A DNA stretch of 64,000 bases from Flaccisagitta enflata (Eukaryota). Every line of letters starts with the position of its first letter. Position 1 is the stretch's first letter. The notes beneath the pieces are model-generated. The model was given only the letters and a program-made list of their open reading frames with translations. It was not told the DNA's origin and did not search any database. The DNA lies in assembly GCA_965153355.1 (NCBI GenBank), contig OZ231126.1, forward strand, positions 30,752,001 to 30,816,000, in the 5' to 3' direction. A program made the position numbers and the translations under genes. This document shows, piece after piece, positions 6,706 to 63,580 of the stretch.

Positions 6706-6894
6706 TTTTTAGTCGAGTGCTACGCAACTCTACAACCCGCTTTGTCGGTCCGTCTGTCTGTTGGTCCGTCGGTCCAGCAGTCCATCACACTTTACTTTTT
6801 AGCTATACCGCTCCTGCCCAAATGCTCCACTGACTACTAATATGGCCCCTGCCCACCCGCATGTGACTGGGATAGCCGTGTATCCAGCCTTGTT
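6706..6894 (+). mobile_element. short HINE-like element
   Basis: TTTTAGTCGAGTGCTACGCAACT hairpin, GTCC/GTCT microsatellite, GCCGTGTATCCAGCCTTGTT end. Confidence 0.7.
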
Positions 6895-17273: not shown

Positions 17274-17480
17274 TTTTTTGTCGCGTGCTACGCGGCTCTA
17301 CACCCCGCTTTTTCCGTCCGTCCGTCGGTTGGTCGGTCGGTCGGTCGGTCCCCTTTTTACTTTTTCGGCGGTTTTGAGCGTTTTGGGCTCACTGCTCCTG
17401 CCCAAATGCTCCGGTGATCTTCTGCATCAATGCCCCTGCCCACCTGCATGCGACTAGGGAAGCCGTGTATCCGGCCTTGA
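17274..17480 (+). mobile_element. short HINE-like element
   Basis: GTCGCGTGCTACGCGGC hairpin, (GTCC/GTCG)n, GCCGTGTATCCGGCCTTG end. Confidence 0.7.
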
Positions 17481-17550
17481 TTCTACTTTTGTGGCCATGG
17501 CTTGCTTAGCCGAGCTCTTTTTTTACTGCCTTCTTTACTTGTTTTTATCT

Positions 17551-18575: not shown

Positions 18576-18765
18576 AAACAAGGCCGGATACACGGCTACC
18601 GAAGTCGCGTGCGGATGGGCAGGGGCCATATTTGAGGTCACTAGACCATTTGGGCAGGAGCAGTGAAGTCCAAAAATAAAAATCATAAAAAAAGTGACCA
18701 ACAGACCGACCGACCGACCGACCGACACAACGGGGTGTAGAGTCGCGTGCACGCGACTAAAAAAG
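18576..18765 (-). mobile_element. short HINE-like element
   Basis: AACAAGGCCGGATACACGGC ... (GACC)n ... AGTCGCGTGCACGCGACTAAAA. Confidence 0.75.
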
Positions 18766-32007: not shown

Positions 32008-32852
32008 GTTGTTGTTAATGTTGTTGTTGTTGTTGTTGTTGTTGTTAATATAGTATAATATAAAAGTAAAGCTACCAAAGGAAGCAACCTTTTTACGAGT
32101 TGCTCATCGAGATGGTAGCTGTTCCGACAGAACAATTACAAATATGTGGCAAAGAAAAATAACCAGTCAGTAGTTCTTCAAAACCAAAAGCACGTGGCAA
32201 AGAACAAACCAGTCAGTAGTTCTTAAGAACCAAAAGCGAGCATTATTACCATGCAACTTCTAAAAATTGAAAATGCCATGTTAGAAATATTCAAAATTGA
32301 CCAGTCACTAGTTTTTAAAAATCTAAAGTATAAATCAGTGAAAAAAAAGTTGCATTTTCACCAAAATTCAACGACTTTCCAAAATATAAAAATGAAGACT
32401 ATAAATACATCCAACTAGAAAATATGATGCTTTCATAAGTGCAAATAATATCAGTGATTATTCTCTGAGCAAATACTGAGGATTTTATGATACTAAGAAA
32501 CCGTTTGTAGAGAGAAAAAAAAAGAAAATCTCTGTTTTGATCATCGTGCTCTTATGGTCGCTAAGTTAGTGAGTCATTTAATCGGAAAGCATGCTATTCT
32601 TCGCTCACGACGGCCGCCGATAACTTTGAAAAACTTGACACTTTTTTCATCCGCAGAAAGAGAATTGTTCAATTGCTCTGCATCTTGTCGTAGCTTCATC
32701 TCCCATGCTTTCTCCACTTGACATTCTAATTTTGTCATGTCGTGAGTGACAACAACCCCGTTCCATTTTTCCATCCCTTTCAGCTTCTTTGCCTTCAGGA
32801 GCATTGCATTCTTTTTTTCCAAGCATGCAAATTTAACCACCAGGGGGCGCAC
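32008..32852 (-). mobile_element. 5-prime-truncated non-LTR element: ORF1 C-terminus, AT-rich UTR and (AAC)n tail
   Basis: ORF 32574-32852 RPLVVKF...LLKAKKLK...HDMT...VIGGRRERR resembles CR1/L2/Jockey ORF1 C-termini; bounded by (GTT)n on both sides. Confidence 0.6.
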
Positions 32853-32853
32853 G

Positions 32854-32972
<119 letters not shown>

Positions 32973-33277
32973 GAGATGGTGGTGGCGGTGGTGGCGGAGA
33001 TGGTGGTGGCGGTGGTGGCGGTGTGTGTCTTTTCCTCTCTCTTCCGTTTTTTTTTTATTTTCATTTTAAATCACTTGAACTCCTCTGTGACAACGTAAAA
33101 TGTGGAATAAATAACACACTCTGTTCATTTAAAAACTCATCAAACCGGATAAAACAGTCTCCAACGCTGCCCCTCTGCAGAGACAGAGATAGAGCTCTGT
33201 CTCCAAGCAAGAGTATACTCAAACAGAGCACCTGCTCTTTTCTGTCAGGATTGTTTACAAATGGATATCTTCGATCC

Positions 33278-33512
33278 TTTTTTAGTTGCGGAAACGCAAC
33301 TCTATAAGAGGCCTTGTCCGTTCATCCGTCATCTGTCAGTCCGTCCGTCTGTCGGTCCGTTGGTCCGTAATGCACGAGTCAAAAAGTGGAAAAACGAGCG
33401 TTTTAGGTGTTTTTTTTATACATGTGTTAGTGGGGGGCATGGGGAGTGGATGGGGGTTGGATGCCCCCGCCCACCCGTCCGCAACGATATTGTGACCCCG
33501 CATCACTTGTTT
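33278..33512 (+). mobile_element. HINE-like element
   Basis: AGTTGCGGAAACGCAACT hairpin ... CCGCAACGATATTGTGACCCCGCATCACTTGTT; similar to 51181-51378. Confidence 0.7.
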
Positions 33513-34959
33513 GGGGTCGTCTTGTGTGACATAGTCAAACAAAAGCATAAAATTGAAAATTAAATCATGTCAATTTTCTATCATTCCCAGAACAGAATGT
33601 AAACAAGTTTTGTGTTCCAATGAAGAAAAACAAGGCCGGATACACGGCAATACAGTCGCGGACGATTTGGCAGGAGCACACTATGGCGCCGAACCAGCAC
33701 AGTATTATACAGGGCACAGAAGGTCAAAATTGGAGATAAAAAAAACGCCAAACCTATTCTTTAGTCTATATGCCTCATTTCAACCTGCCATAGGATCCTA
33801 TCTCGACCGGAGGTAGGTGCCCAGACTCTGGCTCTGGGAGCTGAGATGGCCAATTTAGTGAAAATTCAAAAATGAAAAAAAAATATGAAATAATCATTGG
33901 AGATGAAGTATATTGGTTAGTATGGAAGGTACCCATCATAATTTCTGATCATTTTTGGCATTTGGGGGCTCAGAGGGGTAGTAAAAATTGAGTTGTGAGG
34001 CTCACATCTCGGAAATCCTTCTAGCCTTTTCCTGGCTAAATGTAAACAATCGAAAAACTAGCTTAGAGCGTTTTTGCGCTTACCGTGTTCTGACTAAAAA
34101 AAGTGGGAGATGAAGATTTTCTTCACTCATTTTTTGTCTGTTATGTCTGGTGACAGTTGCGAATGAATCTATCATGTTAGAATTGTTTAAATACATAGAA
34201 TTCATCATTTCAAGATTCTCATGTATAAGAATTAGATCAAAAGTAAATTATAAACATCATGAAGGTCAAATCGCGTGACGAGTAACAGCGTAAGTATATG
34301 CGAGCAACATTTGATTCTACACAGGTGAAATAAACTCGAGAAAGTGAGTAGCCAAAAAAATTGTAACAGGGAAAATTTCCTTGTGCGTAATGGTGAACGG
34401 ACAGTTCGTGGTTTAAAGCGGCTTTAACAGCACTGGTTAGTATAAGAATTCGTCCTCTCCAACATCTGCAAATTCTGGTAGATCATCTCGATCTTCCAAA
34501 GGCAATGCATCGAGATCTCCTTCCAACTGATCTTCCTCACCTAAAGAGTGGAATGATGCAACATTGCAATGTCAGCGCGTAATTGACTTGGTAACCGGTA
34601 AATCAGATGGCTAGAAAGACAGGAATATAAACAATGTACAAGATCCTTAGTATCACCTGTATTGGTTCATTTGAAAACCATTTCTAAATTCATCCACGCA
34701 GCACAAAGCATTGTTTCCTAAACGTTGTTCCTGCCCAACTGTTCCCATTTATTGCCGTTTTTTTCTTACTTCGTATGATTCTCCGGTCATCACTATGGAA
34801 ATTGTTCCTGAACTCAGGGCTCTCGATTCATAAGACATCGTAATCGTTACGGCGGTTGCAACTTCCTTCTTTGTAATGTTTGACGTACACAGTTTCGCCG
34901 TCGTGAATTCCTTCCAGGACATTGACGCGACCCCCGCGCGCTTCTCTTGCCACCTAAAA

Positions 34960-35057
<98 letters not shown>

Positions 35058-35304
35058 TAGACAGACAAACAGGCTGAATTAGCTAGTATACAAGAGGTAG
35101 TGAAGCTGATAATTGAGCGAGTTTTTGATTGTTGGAATTGGTGGAAGTGGGAATGAAAAGAAAAAAAAGTTGATAACGCAGAGAAATACCTCGTTCAATT
35201 TTATTCCTATCAGCGAAAGCTGCCATTATTGGTAGTTATTTTAATTGTGGGTATCTCAAATTCTTTTGAAAGCTTTATATAAAAAGTGACATTCTTGTAA
35301 GAAA

Positions 35305-35441
35305 AAAACAAGGCCGGATACACGGCAGGACAGTTGCGGATGGTTGGGCAGGGGCATTTATACAAAAACCGCTCGTCATTCAAAATAGATGAACGGACCG
35401 CCACAAGGTGTATACGTGTATAATCTGTCCGCGACTAAAAA
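35305..35441 (-). mobile_element. short HINE-like element in a transposase intron
   Basis: AACAAGGCCGGATACACGGC ... GTCCGCGACTAAAA. Confidence 0.65.
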
Positions 35442-35949
35442 TGAATATTGATTACTAACCACGTGAATTTGAGAACATTCTTTGTTTAGCTCTTTTTCAT
35501 GGGCTTCAACGTGACTGGGCGCCGGAAATTGCCAAATTTTGTTCAACGCTGAGTAGACTCTGTCGGGAACTCGATTCTTGTCTTTCCATGATGACGCGTT
35601 CTCCACTTGACGTCTTTCTCCCGGATTGAGCTCGGCGTAGGTTTGTGGTTTTTCGGCTTAAACCTTCAGTTGACAGCCATCTCCATCACGGAGTGTAAGA
35701 GTCTCCAGGCGAAAACCTCTCGCTTCGCCGTAGTGGTTGATTTCGTTAACAAGACGTTCACGGTACGACGCTTTTGTTTTCTCAGCACCACCTTTCCCCA
35801 TTTCCGTAAGCATCTTCCGTTCAAGTACTTTCTGGCGTGACTTCTCTTTACGATTTAAACGATCATTCTCGGCTCTCAACGTGTCTAGAATGTGATGCAA
35901 AAGGAGGAAAAAACCTGACTGTCCTGAATAACTTTGCTTCAGATTTTTC

Positions 35950-36017
<68 letters not shown>

Positions 36018-36342
36018 TTTCTTCCTTTCTTTCTTTCAGTCTGTGTTTGTCAATTAAATCAATTTTGACGGATCATGGGCCAAGTCATTTTGCCTGGCAA
36101 TTTTCACAAGCATGGGGAACTAACAGACCAACAGTCCGGGCCTCAGAGGAAATTATGAAAAAGCGCCAAAAAAAAGAAGTTTTACCGGGAGTGTTCCTTT
36201 CTTGTCGACGGTGCGCTCAGCGACGACAACGTCAACGTCGGGTGCAGATTCCAAAACCGCAACTTCTTTACTGATGACGATTTCAATGTAAGGTGCGGGT
36301 TCGACGACGGCATCTTCCGCGATGACAACTTCAACGTGAGGC

Positions 36343-36856
36343 TTGGGTGCTTCACATAGCAAAAGTTGGGAGTATCTCTCACCCTACTGGGAGAATATGG
36401 AGGAACAAAAATCATGAAGATGTCTATTTTCTTTTTTTTCAAAATTCGTTCATCTTCCGTTTTTGTTTTAGCCTTAAAGTTTCCACAGATTTCCCAGAAT
36501 TCAGCATAATCCTGTGTAGTTTTGGTACTAAAAGGGCAACAATTTATTTCAGAAAATTATGATATTTGTGAAAATAAACTAAAATTTCAGATCATAAGCT
36601 ATGAAAGAGCTTATGAACAGGCAGACCAACAATTCTTTGAAGAGCAGAAATTAGTACAAGCTAATTTAAAGAATGTCAGTAATTGTTTTATCCCTCTGCC
36701 TTATGCAAATTAGGTCTTAAAAAACAATTTTTTAAAAAACAGAAGATGAACAATTTATGATAAAAGAAAAATGATATGGGTCCTAAAATTGACCACTCCA
36801 TATTAAGTAAAGAGGGTGAAAAGAAATAACTAACTTTTGCTATGTGAAGCACCCAA
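36343..36856. mobile_element. Mutator-like MITE (9-bp TSD), copy 1
   Basis: TIR TTGGGTGCTTCACATAGCAAAAGTT perfect at both ends; TSD ACGTGAGGC/ATGTGAGGT. Confidence 0.8.
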
Positions 36857-36956
36857 ATGTGAGGTTTGGGGTCGTCAATGGCAATTTTGATGTGAGACGC
36901 AGGGTAGACAACCGCATCTTCTTCGTCAATGACAAGTTCGACATGAGACATGGGGT

Positions 36957-39260
36957 TTGGGTGCTTCACAAAGCAAAAGTTCGGAGTATCCCTCTACCCT
37001 ACTTGGGTAATGTGAGGGAGCAAAAATCTTGAAGATAACCATTTTTCTTTTTTTAAATTTCCATTATCCTCCGTTTTTGTTATGGATCTAAAGTTTCTAC
37101 AGATTTACCAGAATTCAGTAAAATCTTATGTAATTTTGTTACAAAAAAATAATTATTCATTTTAGAAAATCACAATTTTTATAAAAACAAACTAAAATAT
37201 CAAAACATAAGCTATGGAAGAACTATGGAAAAAGCAGATTAGCAATTCAATGAAGAGTAGAATTTTGTAAAAGCTAATTTAAAGAATATCAGTATACTGT
37301 TTTATGCCACTGCATTATGCAAATTAGGTCCTTAAAATCAATATTTTAAAAACGGAAGATGAATGATTTTTAATAAACAAGGCCAACACCTATAAGTCGC
37401 GTGCGAGACTTACTTACATAATCGCCTGATTATTTAAGTACGTTATTTCCTGTAATGATGATAATGACTATAATTACCCATTCACCTATAATTGCCTATA
37501 ATGACCTATGATTACCCATAATTACCTATGATTACCTATAATTACCCATAATCAAATAATGACCTATAAGTACCTATAAAGACCTGTGATTACCTATAAT
37601 TACATATGGACCAATAATTACCTATAATGAGGTATGATTACCCAAAATTACCGACAATTACCTACAATAACATAATGATCTATAATTACCTATAATGACC
37701 TATGATTACCTATAGTTACCTATAATTACCCATAATTAAATAATGACCTATAAGTACCTATAAAGACCTATGATTACCTATAATTACATATGGACCAATA
37801 ATCACCTATTATGACCTATGATTACCCATAACTACCCATAACTACCTTTAAAAACATAATGACCTTTAATGGCCTATGATTACCTATATTTAACTGTAAT
37901 TGCATAATGACCTATAATTACCTATAATTACTTATGATTAGCTATAATTACCTTAAATTGAATATTGACCTATAATTACCTATAATTGTCTATTTACATA
38001 ATTACCTATAATGACCTATGATTACCTATAATTACCTATTATGACATAATGACCTATAATTACCTTTAATGACCTTTGATTACCTATGATTACCCATAAT
38101 TTCATAATGACCTATGATTACCTATAATTATCTAAAATGACCTATAATTTCCTATTATTACATAATGACCTATAATTACCTATAATGATCTATAATTACC
38201 TTTAATTACCTATGATTATCTATTATTACATAATGACCTATAATTACCAATAATGACCTATAATGACCTATAATGACCTATATTGACCTTATAATGACCT
38301 ATAATGACCTATGATTATATAATGACCTATAATTACCTGTAATTACCTATAATTACCTATAATCACCTATAATTACCTATAATTACCTATGATTACATAC
38401 TGACCTATGATTACCAATAATGACCTATAATTGCATAATAACCTATAATTACCTATAATGACCTATAATTACCTATAATTACATAATGACCTATAATTAC
38501 CTATAATTACCTACAATGACCTATGATTACCTATAATGACCTATATTACCTGTAATTGCATAGTGACCTTTAATGACCTATAATTACCTATGATTACCCA
38601 AAATTGCATAATGACCTATAATTACCTATAATTATGTAAATAAAAAGTGAAATGACTATATTGACTAAAATGACTGAGAATGACTTAGAATGACTAAAAA
38701 TGACTTAAAATGATGTATAATGACTTATAATGACATAAAATGACTTCGAATGACTTAAAATGACTTAAAATGATGAAAAGGATTATATTGACTAAAATGA
38801 CAATAATGACTTAAAATAACTTGGAATGACTTAAAATGCCTTTAAATCACTTGAAATGACTTAAAATCACTTTAAATGACTTAAAATAACTTTAAATGAC
38901 TTAGAATGACTTAAAATGATGAAAAGGACTATATTGACTAAAATGACAATAATGACTTAAAATGAATTAAAATGACTTAGAATGACTTAGAATGACTTAG
39001 AATGACTTAAAATGACTTAGAATGACTTAGAATGACTTAAAATGACTAAAAATGACTTAAAGAAATAAAATTTATAAAAAAAGTAAAGTGTGACCGACCG
39101 ACCAACCGACCGACCGACCGACCGACCGACCGACGGACAAAGCGGGTTGTAGAGTCGCGTGCACGCGACTAAAAATGGTAAAGGTCCTAAAATTAGCAAC
39201 TCCGTATTAGGTAGAGAGGGTGAAAAGAAGTAACCAACTTTTGCTATGTGATGCACTCAA
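36957..39260. mobile_element. Mutator-like MITE, copy 2, with nested HINE
   Basis: same TIR; TSD ACATGGGGT/ACGTGGGGT. Confidence 0.8.
37375..39175 (-). mobile_element. HINE-like element carrying ATAATTACCT/AATGACTTA satellite arrays
   Basis: ends are the reverse complement of those of 22491-23890; the central array is different. Confidence 0.8.
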
Positions 39261-39437
39261 ACGTGGGGTTGACGACTGCATCGTCTTCGTCGACGATGCT
39301 CTCAGCTAAGGCGCAAGTATGATATTCTTCAGATACCGAGTACGTAAGATCTGATGCGAATTGTGAGGAGGTCAAAATTTGTCCTATTATCTCTGCTACA
39401 GTTCAAGAGAGATTCAGAGGGAGAGAATAAGGACAGA

Positions 39438-44053: not shown

Positions 44054-44499
44054 TAATCGCCATCGCGCATTCTCTCACAGACTGTCAGACTCATCTACAC
44101 AATCAACGTTTTCTAGTCAGTTCAATGACAAACGTTGGTTTACATATATGCGAACTCATCGACACATTTACTCACCAGCTAATCGTTGCAATTTTGCAAA
44201 CGAGAATTGAATACATGACCAACAAGTGACGCGGGGTCACAATATCGTTGCGGACGGGTGGGCAGGGGCATCCAAATTTGGATGACGCGAAATCGTCTGA
44301 AATACTGATTTCTGAGCATTAGGACCCCTCCCCGGCCATATTACAGCCCCGACAATCTACTGATTGCCCCTGCCCACCCGCATTACTGCCCCTGCCCATC
44401 CGCCAGCGACTACTTATTGGCCGTGTATCCGGCCTTGTTGCTGTAGTAAAATATTTTGAAATAAACCAACAGTATGTCTTTCTCTTGCTTGCTTGATTC

Positions 44500-48867: not shown

Positions 48868-49050
48868 CAACAAGGCCGGGTACACGGCCATCAGTCGAGG
48901 ACGGTGGGCAGGGACGGAAATGCAATTGTCCGCAACTAAAAATGTTCTAAAACACTCACTTCCTCACTTTTCGACTCGTGTCCACGGACCAACGGACCGA
49001 CCGACGGACAGACAAAGCCTCTTATAGAGTTGCGTATCCGCAACTAAAAA
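48868..49050 (-). mobile_element. intronic HINE-like element
   Basis: AACAAGGCCGGGTACACGGC ... AGAGTTGCGTATCCGCAACTAAAAA. Confidence 0.65.
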
Positions 49051-49422: not shown

Positions 49423-49689
49423 GTAAGAGTTTGCGATAAATGAATGAATGAATGAATGAATGAATGAATGAATGAATGAATGAATGAATGTATAAAGGAA
49501 AGAAGGAAGGAAGGAAGAGAGGAAGAAAGGAAGGAAGGAAGGAAGGAAGGAAGGAAGGAAGGAAGGAAGGAAGGAAGGAAGGAAGGAGGAAGGAAGAAAG
49601 GAAGGAAGGAAGGAAGCCGAAAGGAAGGAATCAATAAATGAACAGGAAGTGAAAAAGCCGTTGGCTGGATGAGTTGACGAATGACGAGC

Positions 49690-49756
<67 letters not shown>

Positions 49757-49784
49757 ATTTGTACATACACAACCCCAACCACAG

Positions 49785-50727
49785 GAAGCTTCCTTAGACG
49801 TGAAAAGCTTCTTCGGCTTCGAGTCCACCGTGGAGAAAATCGCCGTCAAGACATATTCCACGGAAATCGCGCGAGCCAAAGAAACTCTGATGATCTTCTT
49901 GAAGCAGTTAGAAGAAGAAGGCGTCAATCACGTGGAAAAATGGACGCCACCGGGCAAGAGAGAGCCCATGTGGGGCCCACCGGAAGCCGAAATAGCGCCA
50001 ACGGCGTGGGGAGATGAGGAGGGGGTTGAGAAGGGTGAAGGAGAGCAGGATGACGCGGACGAGGTGAAGTATAAGGATACAGGAGATGCAACAACGGTCG
50101 TAAAAGAAACCACCGAATCAGTACAGCAACAATCAGCCCCCAATAACAATAACAACATCAACGTCGCTACCAAAGAATCCTCATCGTCTAACAGCAATAA
50201 CAAAAGCAATAACAAAAACAATAACAACAACAGTAAAAAACTAGAAACGGACTACATCGAGCGTTGCCTCGGCTCGTTGAACGATTCTCAAGCGAGCGCT
50301 TTGGTGCAGTTAAAAGACCGATTGCAACGACGTCATCAGGGCAAAATGCCGAGTGACGCGCACGCGTTACGCTTCCTCCGCGCTCGGGAATTCAACGTCG
50401 ACAAAGCGGAAGACATGATCCTGAAGACGCTGTTGTGGCGCAAAGAATTCAGCGTCGACTCGTTGATTCACTCTTACGTGGCGCCGGAGTTGGTCGTCAA
50501 CCATTTGCCGGGCGTTTGGTTTCGCCACGACGTCGACGGAAGACCCGTGTATCACTTCCGGTTAGGCAGCGCCGATGTGAAAGGCGTCATGAAAGCGTCT
50601 GGAGGCGACGAGCCGTTGCTGCGTCATTTGGCGTGGTTGATCGAGGAAGGGATGAGGCGGTGTTTGGAGGCGACCGCAGAGCGAGGAGCGCCCGTGTCAA
50701 CGGTCACTTGCGTGCTAGATTTGGAAG
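49785..50727 (+). CDS. SEC14L1: SEC14L1-like exon 4 (end of PRELI, linker, CRAL-TRIO N-terminus and start of SEC14)
   Basis: EASLDVKSFFGFESTVEKIA...LRFLRAREFNVDKA...VLDLE G|GTAGGT. Confidence 0.92.
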
Positions 50728-50990
50728 GTAGGTTTTTTGTTTCAATATCTGTTGTTAGTGCACAAGTGGTTGTGTCTCTCGTGAAAAATTTCTGTTAGTC
50801 TTATATTCATGGATACTTCTGTTTTGTTTTGTTTTGCTCTGTTTTGTTTTGTTTTGTTTTGTTTTGTTTTGTTTTGTTTTGTTTTGTTTTGTTTTGTTTT
50901 GTTTTGTTTTGTTTTGTTTTGTTTTGTTCTGTTTTGTTTGTTTGTCGTTTTGTTGTTTTGTTTTGTTTTGTTTTGTTTTGTTTTGTTTTG

Positions 50991-51021
<31 letters not shown>

Positions 51022-51057
51022 CTTTGTTTTGTTTCTTTGGTTTTTTCTTTCTTATTC

Positions 51058-51136
<79 letters not shown>

Positions 51137-51180
51137 CTCTTTCTTTCTTTCTTTCTCTCTGTGCTTAATTTGTATGTTCT

Positions 51181-51378
51181 TCTTAGTTGCGGACACGCAA
51201 CTCTATACGAGGCTTTGTCCGTCCGTCGGTTGGTCCGTGGACATGGGTCGAAAAGTAAGGAAACGAGTGTTTTAGATGCTTTTTGTGCATGTGAGTTGGG
51301 GACTTAGGGTATGGATAGGGGTTGGATGCCCCTGCCCACCCATCCGCAACGATATTTTGACCCCGCGTCACTTGTTTG
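51181..51378 (+). mobile_element. intronic HINE-like element
   Basis: AGTTGCGGACACGCAACT ... GACCCCGCGTCACTTGTT. Confidence 0.7.
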
Positions 51379-51386
51379 TTTGATAG

Positions 51387-51962
<576 letters not shown>

Positions 51963-52148
51963 TGATGCGCAGATAGAGAGAGAAGTAGACGAATAGACGG
52001 ACAAATGGACAGACCGATAATTCTACGGACAAACAGAAAGATAGACAGCTGACGGGAGTCATAGGTTGACAGATTGCTAGATAGATACACAGATAGAAAC
52101 ATAGATTAACTCATTGATAGATAGGTACAGATGGATAGGTAGATAAGT

Positions 52149-52179
<31 letters not shown>

Positions 52180-52316
52180 CAGAGAGACAGAGACAGAGAG
52201 GGAGAGAGACAGAGACAGAGAGATACTCAGACCGACAGACACCGAGAAACAAACACTGACATCCCAGTATATATACTTCTGATTCTCCTCATTTATTTCC
52301 TCTTGCTTATCAACAG

Positions 52317-53329
52317 GCAAACATCTCGACGACGAAAGCTTCGTACCTGAATTTCTCGGCGGCACCGGCGTCGTCGACATCCCCGCCGGCGGCATCATCG
52401 CCAAGGAAGTCGTGCTGCAGATGCAGCAACAGCAGCAACAACAGCAGACTGACGGCGTTGAAGGCGGCGGCGGTGACGAGGAGAATCTGTTGTTTCCCGC
52501 GACCGGATTTTACTCAGTTTACGATCGAGTAACTTTAGTCAAAGGATTTCCTCACGAGGTCGCCCACGTCCTGATCGATGACGATGACGATAAAGACGAC
52601 GATAATGACGATGATGGCGATAACGATGGTGATAACAGCGGCGATGATGAAAAGAAAAAAGCCGCCCCAACTATGAAACGCGCCTCCGTTCTCACTTGGG
52701 ATTTCGACGTCATTAAAGGCGATGTCAGTTTCGTTGTTTATTTCGCGCCGAAACAAAACAATAAATTGGAAACAGGAAGAGCGAGAGGAAGTATTATTCC
52801 CGGTAGAGAGAATGCCAACGAGGATGACGAAGAGGATACAGCCGCGTTGGGATGCGGGTCGATTATCGGCAGTTACGGAGAGATGATGTTGGAGAATCGA
52901 AACGTGGGATCACCCGGAGAAGGATCCAAACAAATCATATCCAAATTAAGGCGCGGGAGCCTCGGTGGTGGTGGAGGCGGTGGTGGAGGCGGTGGTGGCG
53001 GCGATGATGTTAATGCGGGTAGTTGCGCCTGCGCTGTTCTCGCCGGTTACGTCGGCGTCGCCACCGAGTGGAGGCGTCTCGAAGAAACGGCGCGAATCTA
53101 CCGCGAGCGTGACAGTATTCAAGGAAGTTTGGAGGTCACCGAACCCGGATGTTACGTCCTCCAGTGGGAAAATTACGAAAAACAAAAGACGCCTTTGGGC
53201 CCTTTTGAATTCCCGGCGTTGGCCGCGGCTGCCAAAGCCAAAGTCATGACTTTCACGGAACTCATTCCAGCCTCGAAGGAAATCGAAGGATCCATTTCTA
53301 GTTTCTCGCTCACCAAACTCACGGTCTAG
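52317..53329 (+). CDS. SEC14L1: SEC14L1-like exon 6 (GOLD domain, stop)
   Basis: VPEFLGG...KGFPHEV...LTWDFDV...SIQGS...PGCYVLQW...TAG. Confidence 0.92.
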
Positions 53330-56792: not shown

Positions 56793-57472
56793 CTCCAAAA
56801 AAAAAACGGAGGGAATCACTGCCAACTGTTACAATGGTTTACATACTCTATAGTCCCTTAGTCATGGTTTTAGTTTTTTTAGAATTACCAGGTTGTTACG
56901 TTATCTCCAGTTTTCCATTTCGGTCCGTTATTTTCTATGCTCGCCATACACCGCCATGCCTATCAAGTATAATTTCCGTTTATGCTCTTATCTATGCAGC
57001 CTCGTACTTACGGTTTACTACATTTATAAAACAATGTTTACTCTGTTCATTGTTATACAATTTTGAAAAAAATACAATATTACCCAAAAACTATCGGCTC
57101 AGAAACGATGACTAACTATGGCGTCAATTAAAGTGTGTCACAGGAAGAAGTTAGATATGGAATAAAAAGAAAAAAATAGTTTGAATTCCTTCATTTTTGA
57201 TAAAGTTAACTCCACTATTCAACTTCAAATTTGTTTGAGTCGTATCGCAGTTTGCTTATCAATCATGCTTCATCGTACATCTTCTTATCATTGTCGATCG
57301 CATTTTGATGCCATGGTTAAAAAAAGATAGAGAAATTTCGATGTCTATCATTCGCATTCTCGTTATTTGTTTATTGACAAGAATCTTCATGTCTGCCTGT
57401 CTGTCTGTTTCTCCTTCTCCTATTCTCCGCCTCATACACACACAAACACACACATTTTTTACTCTCCAACAG

Positions 57473-59106
57473 TTTTCTCTGATCGACTGAAGCGTTTAAA
57501 GATGGATTCCCCGAAACCCGAACCCACTTCCAATTGGATGACTTTAATTCGTCAAGCCGTGTCTCGAGAATGCGCCGCGCACGATGTCGAGGAATTGGCG
57601 GAAATGGAAACCTGCCCCGAAGACTGGATGCACTTCGTCCACGAAAACATGGACTGGAGTCCGTTTGAAAAGTCCGTCCAGTTGGTTTGGGACGAATGGT
57701 ATGATCATCAGGGCGTCTCTGAGGCGACTTCCATGAATCCCCGTAAAGACGATTTCCATCAACTTGGCCTTCCGCCGCAAATCAACTACAAAGTCAAAAT
57801 CACGGAAAAGGCCGCGATTCAGCCGCGAAAGTCGAGCGTCCGCGGCCGGTACATGGTCGCCAGCGAGGAAATCCCCGCCGGCAGCGTCGTGCTGCAGGAA
57901 AAGCCCTTCGCCTTCGTCCTCAACGGCGAGTTTAAACTGACTCATTGCAGTAACTGTTTCTGTCGACTCGAAGGCGACGATTTTAAAGTCTGCGACAAAT
58001 GCGAGGAAACTTACTTTTGTTCGGACAAATGCGCTCGTCAAGGACTGCAGAGTTTTCATCGTTACGAATGCCCGTTTATGAAAGGCTTACGGAGTTTGAA
58101 GCTGTATCCGTTGGCTTTCCGGATGTTTCTCCACGGATGGACCAACGCCATGCAGATTTATTTGGCCTCCAAGATGATTTCGTTGCAGGCTTTCCTCGAT
58201 CGCGGCCACAGTCTTCCGTCGCCGTCGGAGTTGGATCTGCTCTCCAACTGGCACGTCATTCCCGGCGAGCATTGTCTCAAACACGCCGTCATCGCCAAAC
58301 TCTTCGTCGAAATCCTCAAAGGCGGCGGCCTGTTCCGCGGGCTGCAGAATTACGTCCGCACGGCGGCGAAGGAGAAAGACGGCGTTGATTTGAGTCTGGA
58401 CGACGAATTGTTAAACGAAGACTTGGAACATTTCCTCGGCACGTATCTCTTGGACAATATTCAACGCGTCAAATTCAACTCTTTCGAAATGTCCGAATTC
58501 GTCATGTTGAGGAAAAACCCGATTCACACTTCGGAACCGCTGACGGACAATCAGGATCGACTTTACCGCGTGATCAGCGATTACAACACCACCGGCGCCG
58601 CGACTTACTTGAATACCAGTCAATTTAACCACAGTTGCAAACCCAACTGCAATTTCTATTTCATCAACAACGAGATTGTGGTGAGATCCAACCAGAAAAT
58701 CCCGGCGGGCGGGGAGATTAAAATCAGCTACGGACCGAATGTGATGAACACCAAATCGAAGAAGAAGAGAAAGCGACAACTGGCGGAAAGCTACGGATTC
58801 AATTGTCTCTGCGAACAATGCAACGGGAAATCCATCCGGTCGCAGATCGTGGAAGAAGAGGAGAGAGATAGAAAGATCGAGGCGGGAGTTTGGGACGAGG
58901 AGGAAGAGGAGGAGGCGGCGGCGAGGGCGGCGGCGGAGGAGGAGGAGGCGGCCGCGAGGGAGGAGAATGAGGAAGAGGATGATTTCGAGGATTTGCTGAA
59001 TGACGAACCGATGATTAATCGGAATAAGGAAGCCAGAATCGTGGAAGGGCAAGTTTGTTACAAATTGGCGGAAGCGAATTCGGCGTTTGAGGTCAGTGGA
59101 GGATGA
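57473..59106 (+). CDS. SMYD-family (SMYD4-like) split-SET/MYND lysine methyltransferase, main exon
   Basis: GRYMVASEEIPAG (SET-N), CSNC..CDKC..FCSDKC..HRYEC (MYND), FNHSCKPN..EIKISYG (SET-C), FNCLCEQC (post-SET), acidic tail. Confidence 0.93.
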
Positions 59107-61755: not shown

Positions 61756-63580
61756 TCACAGTTGAGAAGGGCAAAAACCAAATCTTTTTTTTTTTACATT
61801 TTTAGTCAAGGTTACTAAAGGCCTGATTTCAAGTATGTGTCTCCTTTCAAAGTCATCCAAAACTTCATCATTGGGATAGATCCTATATGTTTTTCCTTGA
61901 TCATCCTTTGCTCTTGTTTTCAGAGCAGTGAGAGCTTGCACACAAATGCTATCTTGTTGCTGATTGTAAGATTGCACAGATCCAAGGTTCCAGCCATCTT
62001 CTTGCAATGTGATAACAAATTCTTCTTCCTGTAATGGCCAATTGAAGTCTTTTAGAGGCTCCTCCACAGGTACCCTAGACCTCTTTGCTTGCTTATTGGC
62101 AGACTGAGGGGATGTTTCTAGTGAAAGCGTTAAACGCGTTCTGATCGCGTTTTAAGCCAAACGCGTTTTTAGTAGTGGGACCATTGAAAAAAAGTTTCAT
62201 GCCTTCCAAAAATCGAACTCCCAAACCCAAAAATGAGAATTAAGTGACTTACCAGTTCGCCACAAAGCGCTGCACAATCGTGGGGTATGGGATTGGACTT
62301 ATTTCAAAAGTGATTGGCAAGTTATTGCCCAAATGTAGTTTGAGACCGGTGCAAGATTTGCTTGTTCCAAAGATCGCTCTAGTTGCAAAGCAAAAAGGCA
62401 TTCAAATTTTAAAAAAGTCTATACCGGGGTGGCGAACATGCAGAGAGCGAGACTGCAAATTAAAAGTTGCAAGATCGAATCCTGCAATCCCCGAGACTTT
62501 TTTTCAATGGCGTTACTGCCTAAAACGCGTTATTCTTGAAATGCGAATGAAACGCGTTTCAGGCTTTCACTAGAAACATCCCCTAAGTACCTACTGACTC
62601 AGAAGCCACATAGACATCTTCTACAGTAATGACCTCTTGGTCAGATGGGTCAACTGTGTGCAAAGCAAGCAGATTTTCATACATCTGTTTGGCTGTGATA
62701 TTGCACTGTTTGAAATAAACAAAATCATTGGGCATTTCTGAAAACAAAGCCTTTTTCAACTTAACTTCTCTGCTCAGAATAGCCAACTGATCTGCCTCAC
62801 TCAGCTTTTTGATTCTGTCATAGCACTTTTTAACACATAAAGAAATCAGTAAATTTTTGGCCAAATCTCTTGTCAGCTTGTCTGCTTCACTGTCTGTCAA
62901 GGCCAACTTTGCTTTCATGATCTCTTTCTGAGACTTTGAAAAACCTGCTTCAATTTGATGAACTTCTTTCTGTTTGGCCTTTAGCTCCTTGTCCTTCAAC
63001 ATGTTGACTCCCTCATTACCAAAGGCAAGATCTAAACTTGTTTTTAGCACAAGTCTGTCACTGATAGCTTGGAAAGCAGAGCCTCCCTTGCTTCTTAACT
63101 GTTGAGAAAAATGTCCAAAATAATTTTCTCCAATTTTGTTGTCCACAGGGATGGTCTTAAGCTGTTCTTCAGTGAAGATTTCTGACAGAGGCTTTAAGTG
63201 TGTCTCTCCCTGGCTGCTTTCTTTGCTGAGTATTCCAGATATTCTGGACCAAATTCATACTGAATTCTTCGTTGCCTTGACAGAGTTGCAGCAAGCTGTT
63301 TCATCAAGACTTGCATTGCAGTTTATTGACATCACTGCTCAAGATGCTTGCAAAAGACTCCATCCATTCTTGTTTGTACTTTCTTCCAAATCATCCTCAA
63401 GAGCTGGAAGAGCATGCCTCTCAACTGAGCTGAATTTTAAACCTGGGATTGGTTCCATCATTTGTTTGTACAAATTTTGAAGGATACTTCGAAGAGCCAA
63501 ATGAGTTGGTCAAGGTTGCTGATCCAACAGAATACCAAGAAGTGGCTCCATCAAATGATAGCCAACCTCTACAGTTCATT
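61756..63580 (-). pseudogene. C-terminal half of a transposase-like gene with stops, split by a MITE
   Basis: GYHLMEPLL...LSRQRRIQYEFG...IPVDNKIGENYFGHFSQQLRSKGG; removing 62108-62583 and one TSD fuses ORFs 62583-63146 and 61756-62067 in frame. Confidence 0.65.
62108..62583. mobile_element. PIF/Harbinger-type MITE
   Basis: TIR GGGGATGTTTCTAGTGAAAG / CTTTCACTAGAAACATCCCC; 3-bp TSD TGA/TAA. Confidence 0.85.

Follow-up and report, generated by a model that had tools for sequence, protein, structure and literature searches.

Two decayed internal exons in Flaccisagitta enflata probably derive from an unannotated family of RAG1/Transib/Chapaev-type layout

A split minus-strand locus

We analysed a 64,000-nucleotide (nt) stretch of Flaccisagitta enflata DNA (assembly GCA_965153355.1, contig OZ231126.1, positions 30,752,001 to 30,816,000; hereafter the window), in which a first-pass annotation made from the letters alone had described a spliced, decayed remnant of a RAG1-core-like transposase on the minus strand. 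All of the peptide frames that it quoted were recovered on that strand where it had placed them, and they resolve into two exons, A and B, with an intron between them (Table 1). Exon A ends in ...QIHV, followed directly by the donor GTTAGT at 35459. Within the intron lie (CT)n/(CTGT)n microsatellites (~34960-35080) as well as a single interspersed-repeat copy. In exon B the reading frame changes past ...GETVYVK, and in the exon B query this break was bridged by an X via a four-letter step.

At least one exon must precede exon A in its gene, because an acceptor lies directly ahead of it, its frame opens in phase 1 and its relatives extend upstream into a coiled coil. Judging from the model of a close relative, the exon A product is predicted to consist of a basic helix and a beta-hairpin, together with a three-helix module resembling the RAG1 domain known as DDBD. 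Exon B is read as a short stretch preceding an RNase H domain together with what appear to be beta-strands one to three of the core. Using tblastn of the window with the relatives, no upstream coiled-coil exon was detected. The downstream core was likewise absent, both from a tblastn search of the window with the longer relatives (E ≤ 10) and from a D-x16-21-CxxC scan near the locus, in line with the earlier proposal that the downstream catalytic region is missing. Megablast against a phage collection gave no match.

Relatives of both exons

Exon A was searched against 1.84 billion representative proteins with a cut-off of E ≤ 1e-3. This retrieved 38 proteins, including 30 at E ≤ 1e-10 and 3 at E ≤ 1e-30. 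The top relative, P0003, shares 80% identity (E 4.7e-63) and, using tblastn, aligned with exon A in the window at 78.5% identity (E 9e-76). Nearly all of the relatives are short open reading frames (ORFs) of 58-310 amino acids (aa) from ENA and Logan assemblies. Of the 38 matches, 20 were aligned in A1 and 25 in A2, while P0027, P0029-P0035, P0038 and P0040 were viewed at table level. P0036 (1194 aa) was dropped as a repeat-protein artefact with 7 short repeated stretches.

Most relatives carry 100-170 residues of coiled coil upstream of the exon A domain; in the AlphaFold2 (AF2) model of P0037, this coiled coil is a helix spanning residues 44-123 with a predicted local distance difference test (pLDDT) score above 90. 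Family similarity ends at the exon A acceptor in both the window and P0003. At the opposite border, 17 of the 18 short ORFs in A1 have a Val (GTN) right past the exon A end and can no longer be aligned from there on; the remaining ORF ends earlier. This is the pattern expected if ORF callers read into a conserved intron, and the exon A donor is therefore supported comparatively.

Exon B, with X at the break, matched all six candidates (P0043-P0048), with E values of 4.5e-13 to 1.1e-8 and 63-92% identity. Each of the six becomes unalignable right past GESYE or GESYA, where a Val follows, and the exon B donor is thereby marked. The link from these ORFs to longer proteins is colinear: BLASTP of P0044 against P0041 gave an E value of 1e-07 (residues 275-349), and hhalign of the exon B profile (A4) against P0037 an E value of 2.6e-4. 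We therefore refer below to an alignment of 8 sequences (A5), in which the exon B ORFs are joined with the longer relatives P0037 and P0041.

The P0003 cluster is borne by 32 contigs and the P0046 cluster by 12. A search for longer exon A relatives found none among 305 candidates, and the P0037 core, used as a query, returned only P0037 itself and P0041. Pattern searches of metagenome contigs gave 274 matches for P0003 and 71 for P0037, none of which was confirmed, and a pattern search of viral contigs with P0037 gave nothing. A cluster look-up returned names for none of the 8 proteins entered. Chance ORFs are ruled out as an explanation by the E values of exons A and B. As judged from these alignments, both exons are members of a genuine protein family, and the family behind the remnant is unannotated.

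Lesions and apparent silence of the window copy

Two stretches present in P0043 and P0044 are missing from the window. The first, near 34912/34911, is the 13-residue EAKKLISHQLKVG, an in-frame loss of 39 nt; the second is LAMDGTN, removed by a frameshifting deletion of ~20 nt near 34879/34878. Where the relatives read VKLAMDGTN, the window reads VK/ITKK. Exon B comprises 81 codons (243 nt) in intact relatives versus 184 nt in the window; this shortfall of 59 nt equals 39 plus 20, and the 20-nt loss therefore accounts for the frameshift. The Asp of the LAMDGTN motif is invariant in all 8 sequences of A5 and is deleted in the window copy, which bears out the earlier suggestion that the frameshift falls at the position expected of the first catalytic Asp. 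In exon A, the relatives carry Asn at the position of the window TAA.

We compared four sequencing runs: X1 and X2 (organism A DNA contigs), X3 (marine metagenome) and X11 (polyA RNA). The TAA is kept in X1 and X2; an X3 contig (648 nt, with 14 differences over 35324-35940) has A>T at 35660, giving AAA (Lys). X3 shows no gap across 34845-34945, and the frameshift is therefore common to X3 and the window. One X2 contig has an extra stop (TAC>TAG at 34773). At positions where the window residue is odd, other runs carry the family consensus (W>G at 35534, F>L at 35712, Q>R at 35608 and 35644). Among the 11 exon A differences listed, 5 are synonymous, and 5 of the 6 that change a residue, the stop included, restore the residue of the relatives or the consensus. 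Thus the split, decayed remnant of the first-pass annotation, with its TAA codon, GT-AG borders and frameshift, agrees with the frames, the borders and the relatives alike.

In ~12.2 million polyA reads (~6% of X11), 2 reads were placed, both on the interspersed repeat and 0 on the exons, which argues weakly for a silent locus. It looks dead, a piece of ordinary genomic debris.

The acidic last exon that had also been proposed fared less well. The ORF exists and can be joined in phase 0 solely from the AG at 34537-34536 (EDQLEG...FLY*), whereas a better AG at 34542-34541 opens another, non-acidic frame. In the acidic frame, 4 of 5 listed variants alter the residue, no relative was found and 0 RNA reads of the X11 sample were placed. 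As nothing was found to tie the frame to exons A and B, we rejected it as a proven part of the gene.

Module order and structural likeness to RAG1 and Transib

The AF2 model of P0003 (26 rows) has a pLDDT of 87.4. When it was compared with 48,161 PDB representatives, Transib, RAG1 and RAGL chains were at ranks 1, 3, 5, 6 and 9. These are HzTransib (6PQN), mouse RAG1 (4WWX and 6CIJ), zebrafish RAG1 (6DBI) and BbRAGL (6B40), matched with a root-mean-square deviation of 1.6-2.2 Å over 41-47 residues. In all five chains, residues 101-147 of the model, forming the three-helix module, superpose on one domain, corresponding to mouse RAG1 461-510. The DDBD of RAG1 is given as residues 459-515 (PMC13056857; this and all other papers are cited from excerpts). 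The first-pass annotation had placed the exon A motif just ahead of preR, with which this match is consistent.

In both long relatives, P0037 and P0041, the exon A domain is followed by the exon B region (VKAGIDATR) and then by LMGGD...PCEFC, that is, GGD-x18-CxxC. The first and second Asp (D1 and D2) are 76 residues apart and D2 lies 19 residues ahead of the Cys; the candidate second Asp was seen in these two proteins only. The catalytic triad of mouse RAG1 is D600, D708 and E962 (10.1101/698332), while in pig RAG1 the zinc Cys are C730/C733 and E965 corresponds to mouse E962 (PMC13056857). The distance from D708 to C727 in RAG1 is 19 residues, equal to that from D2 to Cys in the long relatives (10.1101/698332, PMC13056857). 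The module order in the family (DDBD-like module, ~45 residues, Asp strand, second Asp, CxxC) is colinear with RAG1, and, as in Transib, RAG1 and RAGL, a conserved Asp lies on what appears to be the strand following the DDBD-like module. Unlike RAG1, the family has a D1-D2 distance of 76 rather than 108 residues, and its DDBD-like module is linked to the first Asp by ~45 residues, in contrast to preR 515-588. Its N-terminus also differs in being a long coiled coil, with no NBD or zinc-finger region seen.

The ESM neighbours of P0037 residues 235-487 were headed by DUF1280-bearing clusters at 0.97 (15% and 45% of members), followed by RAG1_RNase_H/ZnC2/ZnH2 clusters at 0.96 and, lower, by Transposase_21/DUF1258 clusters at 0.93. 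Members of known phylum in the DUF1280 clusters are mostly sponge and cnidarian. DUF1280 (PF06918) is described as corresponding to Chapaev transposases and as clustering with RAG1 (PMC3985635), and Chapaev as an animal lineage distantly similar to the RAG1/Transib core (PMC4411706, PMC3985635). Chapaev and RAG1L N-termini are marked by a Chapa zinc finger (PMC4411706, bioRxiv 10.64898/2026.01.24.700457), unlike the Cys-poor, helical or coiled-coil N-termini of P0004, P0006, P0007, P0011, P0013, P0020, P0024, P0037 and P0041. The three weaker lines, namely motifs, ESM neighbours and the structure of the exon A domain, agree with one another.

Weighing the explanations

On this basis, we consider that 35884-34770 on the minus strand is probably a non-functional fragment, two internal exons long, of an intron-bearing, moderately repeated family with a RAG1/Transib/Chapaev-type layout. 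The family would then be one of transposases with an affinity to RAG1, Transib and Chapaev, and the DDBD match, the D-19-CxxC spacing and the ESM neighbours hint at a likeness to the RAG1 core.

A number of results weigh against this conclusion. Using hmmscan, neither the window pieces nor P0037, P0041, P0003, P0004, P0011 and P0039 yielded a Pfam family, RAG1 included (E ≤ 1 or 10), and Pfam DUF1280, Transposase_21 (PF02992) and DUF1258 (PF06869) had no match to P0037 or P0041 at E ≤ 10. Phmmer of P0037 found no chain in the PDB, and hmmsearch with the A5 profile likewise returned no RAG1, Transib or RAGL chain, each search being read at E ≤ 10. The RAG1-core likeness claimed in the first-pass annotation is weakly supported by structure, spacing and ESM neighbours and goes unmatched by HMMER against Pfam and the PDB; the annotation itself had named the lack of a profile match to the RAG1/Transib fold as a refutation. 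Foldseek with the P0037 and P0003 models gave nothing at E ≤ 0.001. The AF2 model of P0037 (22 rows) is confident solely in the coiled coil and the exon A domain; its core, with a putative RNase H fold, has a pLDDT below 50, and VIA-align of the model returned coiled coils only. The ESM search carried the warning that its top family, shared by 5 of the 10 best matches, is probably wrong, and P0003 had no usable feature match in the ESM Atlas, where its own model was poor (pLDDT 0.49). Neither the third catalytic residue, Glu, nor the His pair of the zinc site (ZnH2) was seen in any relative, because all are truncated. No Chapa/NZD zinc finger was present in the N-termini seen, beyond which upstream exons may lie outside the ORFs. 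Neither terminal inverted repeats nor target duplications came to light, and no element termini are definable for the fragment. Finally, exon depth is close to unique-flank depth at ≥90% likeness, so the locus is single or low-copy at that likeness and its paralogues are more diverged.

The strongest competing explanation, which we regard as unlikely, is that the family falls in the CMC group, in a different DDE lineage with a CxxC (CACTA/Mirage, or Chapaev where it is counted among CMC), with its RAG1/Transib likeness reflecting features common to the superfamilies. Both the top ESM clusters, partly bearing DUF1280, and the weaker Transposase_21/DUF1258 neighbours would fit this explanation. 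CACTA/Mirage transposases have a CxxC after the second Asp as well, and the DDBD match is non-discriminating, because to our knowledge the PDB holds no structure for Chapaev or CACTA. Against a CMC origin, none of the three corresponding Pfam families is matched, the CACTA/Mirage families rank under DUF1280 and RAG1 among the ESM neighbours, the relatives' N-termini have no Chapa zinc finger, and Transib, RAG1 and RAGL supply the best structural rows. The classification itself is disputed, some authors assigning Chapaev to CMC (bioRxiv 10.64898/2026.01.24.700457, 10.1101/2021.09.26.461848) and others to the Transib superfamily (PMC4411706).

It is more doubtful still that the relatives are host coiled-coil DNA-binding proteins unconnected with transposition, whose three-helix bundle and short motifs resemble RAG1 by chance. 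Zero sequence or profile matches to transposase families, a core that cannot be folded from a shallow alignment, conserved intron positions and few copies at high identity would all suit host proteins. Chance would nonetheless have to explain why ESM on the core and structure comparison on another domain converge on the family that had been named in advance, and why the order from DDBD-like module to Asp strand to D-19-CxxC is colinear with RAG1. Many diverged as well as decayed copies in the same sources also argue against a host family.

A working spliced gene for a shortened, non-catalytic protein, whether by way of the AAA allele, by skipping an exon or in a different frame, is very improbable: the GT-AG borders are intact, X3 has a stop-free allele and nearly half of the listed exon A differences are synonymous, but X3 shares the frameshifting deletion, a further stop segregates in X2, nearly all residue-changing differences restore the family residue, no upstream exons were found and no read in the X11 RNA sample covers the exons.

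Other features of the window

The window is eukaryotic and microsatellite-rich, with intron-split genes; features besides the two exons are listed in Table 1. The 21-nt core of the interspersed repeat occurs in 7 copies, against 0 expected, and its contig word depth in the organism A runs is ~1.6 million versus ~200 in the flanks; depth is high in the marine metagenome too. Just upstream of exon A, copies of a ~300-nt unit (36428-36738, 37042-37352 and 39171-39270) look like a foldback or miniature inverted-repeat transposable element (MITE)-type element. Rfam had 0 matches over 33000-37000.

For the two long frames near the window end, the sole match, to NPC1_N (E 0.008, 16.3 bits versus a 27-bit cutoff), was taken as spurious. 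The longer of them is helical and Lys/Glu-rich and could belong to another mobile-element protein; tblastn showed no relation to the exon A/B family. The frame adjoining the (AAC)n run may resemble the RNA-binding domain of retrotransposon ORF1 proteins.

Table 1. Positions of the exons, their borders and lesions, and other features in the window.
Feature	Position	Strand	Remarks
Acceptor AG of exon A	35885..35886	-	pyrimidine tract ahead of AG
Exon A	35460..35884	-	425 nt, starts phase 1, ends phase 0
Polymorphic nonsense codon (TAA, in frame) within exon A	35658..35660	-	
Intron between exons A and B	34954..35459	-	GT 35459-35458, AG 34955-34954, ~500 nt
Exon B	34770..34953	-	184 nt; preceded by ...TTTTAG, starts GTGGCA; ends GAA, donor GTAAGA
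Frameshift junction, site of relatives' LAMDGTN (invariant Asp, putative first catalytic)	34878..34881	-	
Putative acidic terminal exon, EDQLEG...EDEFLY	34437..34535	-	stop 34439-34437; from ORF and acceptor analysis
Interspersed-repeat copies	35303-35356 (core, within the A-B intron; family D20), 33626-33678, 6874-6894, 17461-17481, 18577-18597, 44419-44439, 48869-48889		
Repeats with a ~300-nt unit, including perfect inverted repeats of 25 nt (36343-36367 / 36832-36856)	36320-37380, 39171-39283		
Satellite, 10-nt periodicity, ATAATTACCT-like units	37380-39120		higher-order blocks (families D1, D2, D4)
Open frame adjoining long (AAC)n run	32574-32855	-	no Pfam match, E ≤ 0.1
Intron-split gene with PRELI, CRAL_TRIO_N, CRAL_TRIO and GOLD-like domains (SEC14-like lipid-transfer protein)	49653-53329	+	
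Single 591-aa frame with SET and MYND domains (SMYD-type methyltransferase)	57331-59106	+	
Long open frames of 131 and 223 aa	61756-62151, 62583-63254	-	no Pfam above threshold

Discussion

If the two exons derive from a family of RAG1/Transib/Chapaev-type layout, intact members would begin with a long N-terminal coiled coil, followed by a small DNA-binding/dimerisation module ending in three helices that are similar to the RAG1 and Transib DDBD. About 45 residues further on would come an RNase-H-type nuclease core with the Asp on its first strand (VK-x3-D-G/A-T), to which the longer relatives appear to add a second Asp and, 19 residues on, a CxxC. Such a layout would match that of the DDE cut-and-paste transposases in the RAG1/Transib/Chapaev assemblage, and an enzyme of this kind would be expected to form dimers, bind to the ends of the element and cleave DNA with an acidic triad. 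The window copy would be unable to do so, because it has a nonsense codon and the 39-nt and 20-nt losses and shows no detectable upstream coiled-coil exons or remainder of the core.

The remnant itself is of little weight. The family is noteworthy in having been missed by Pfam and HMMER despite its RAG1-type module order. As a lesson in method, exon-sized ORFs in metagenome protein sets, when joined by homology, can lead to eukaryotic transposase genes.

More tentatively, the intact relatives, known only as ORFs from marine metagenome and run assemblies, may be a deep lineage of the RAG1/Transib/Chapaev assemblage that has yet to be described. In this lineage, the RAG1-type DDBD and the compact DDE/CxxC core would be preceded by a coiled coil in place of the NBD or the Chapa zinc finger. 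Were this true, the lineage would serve as an outgroup for reconstructing how the modules of the RAG1 core were assembled. If full-length members agree, the family would offer a reference point for the ancestral modules and for the disputed relation of Transib/RAG1 to Chapaev/CMC.

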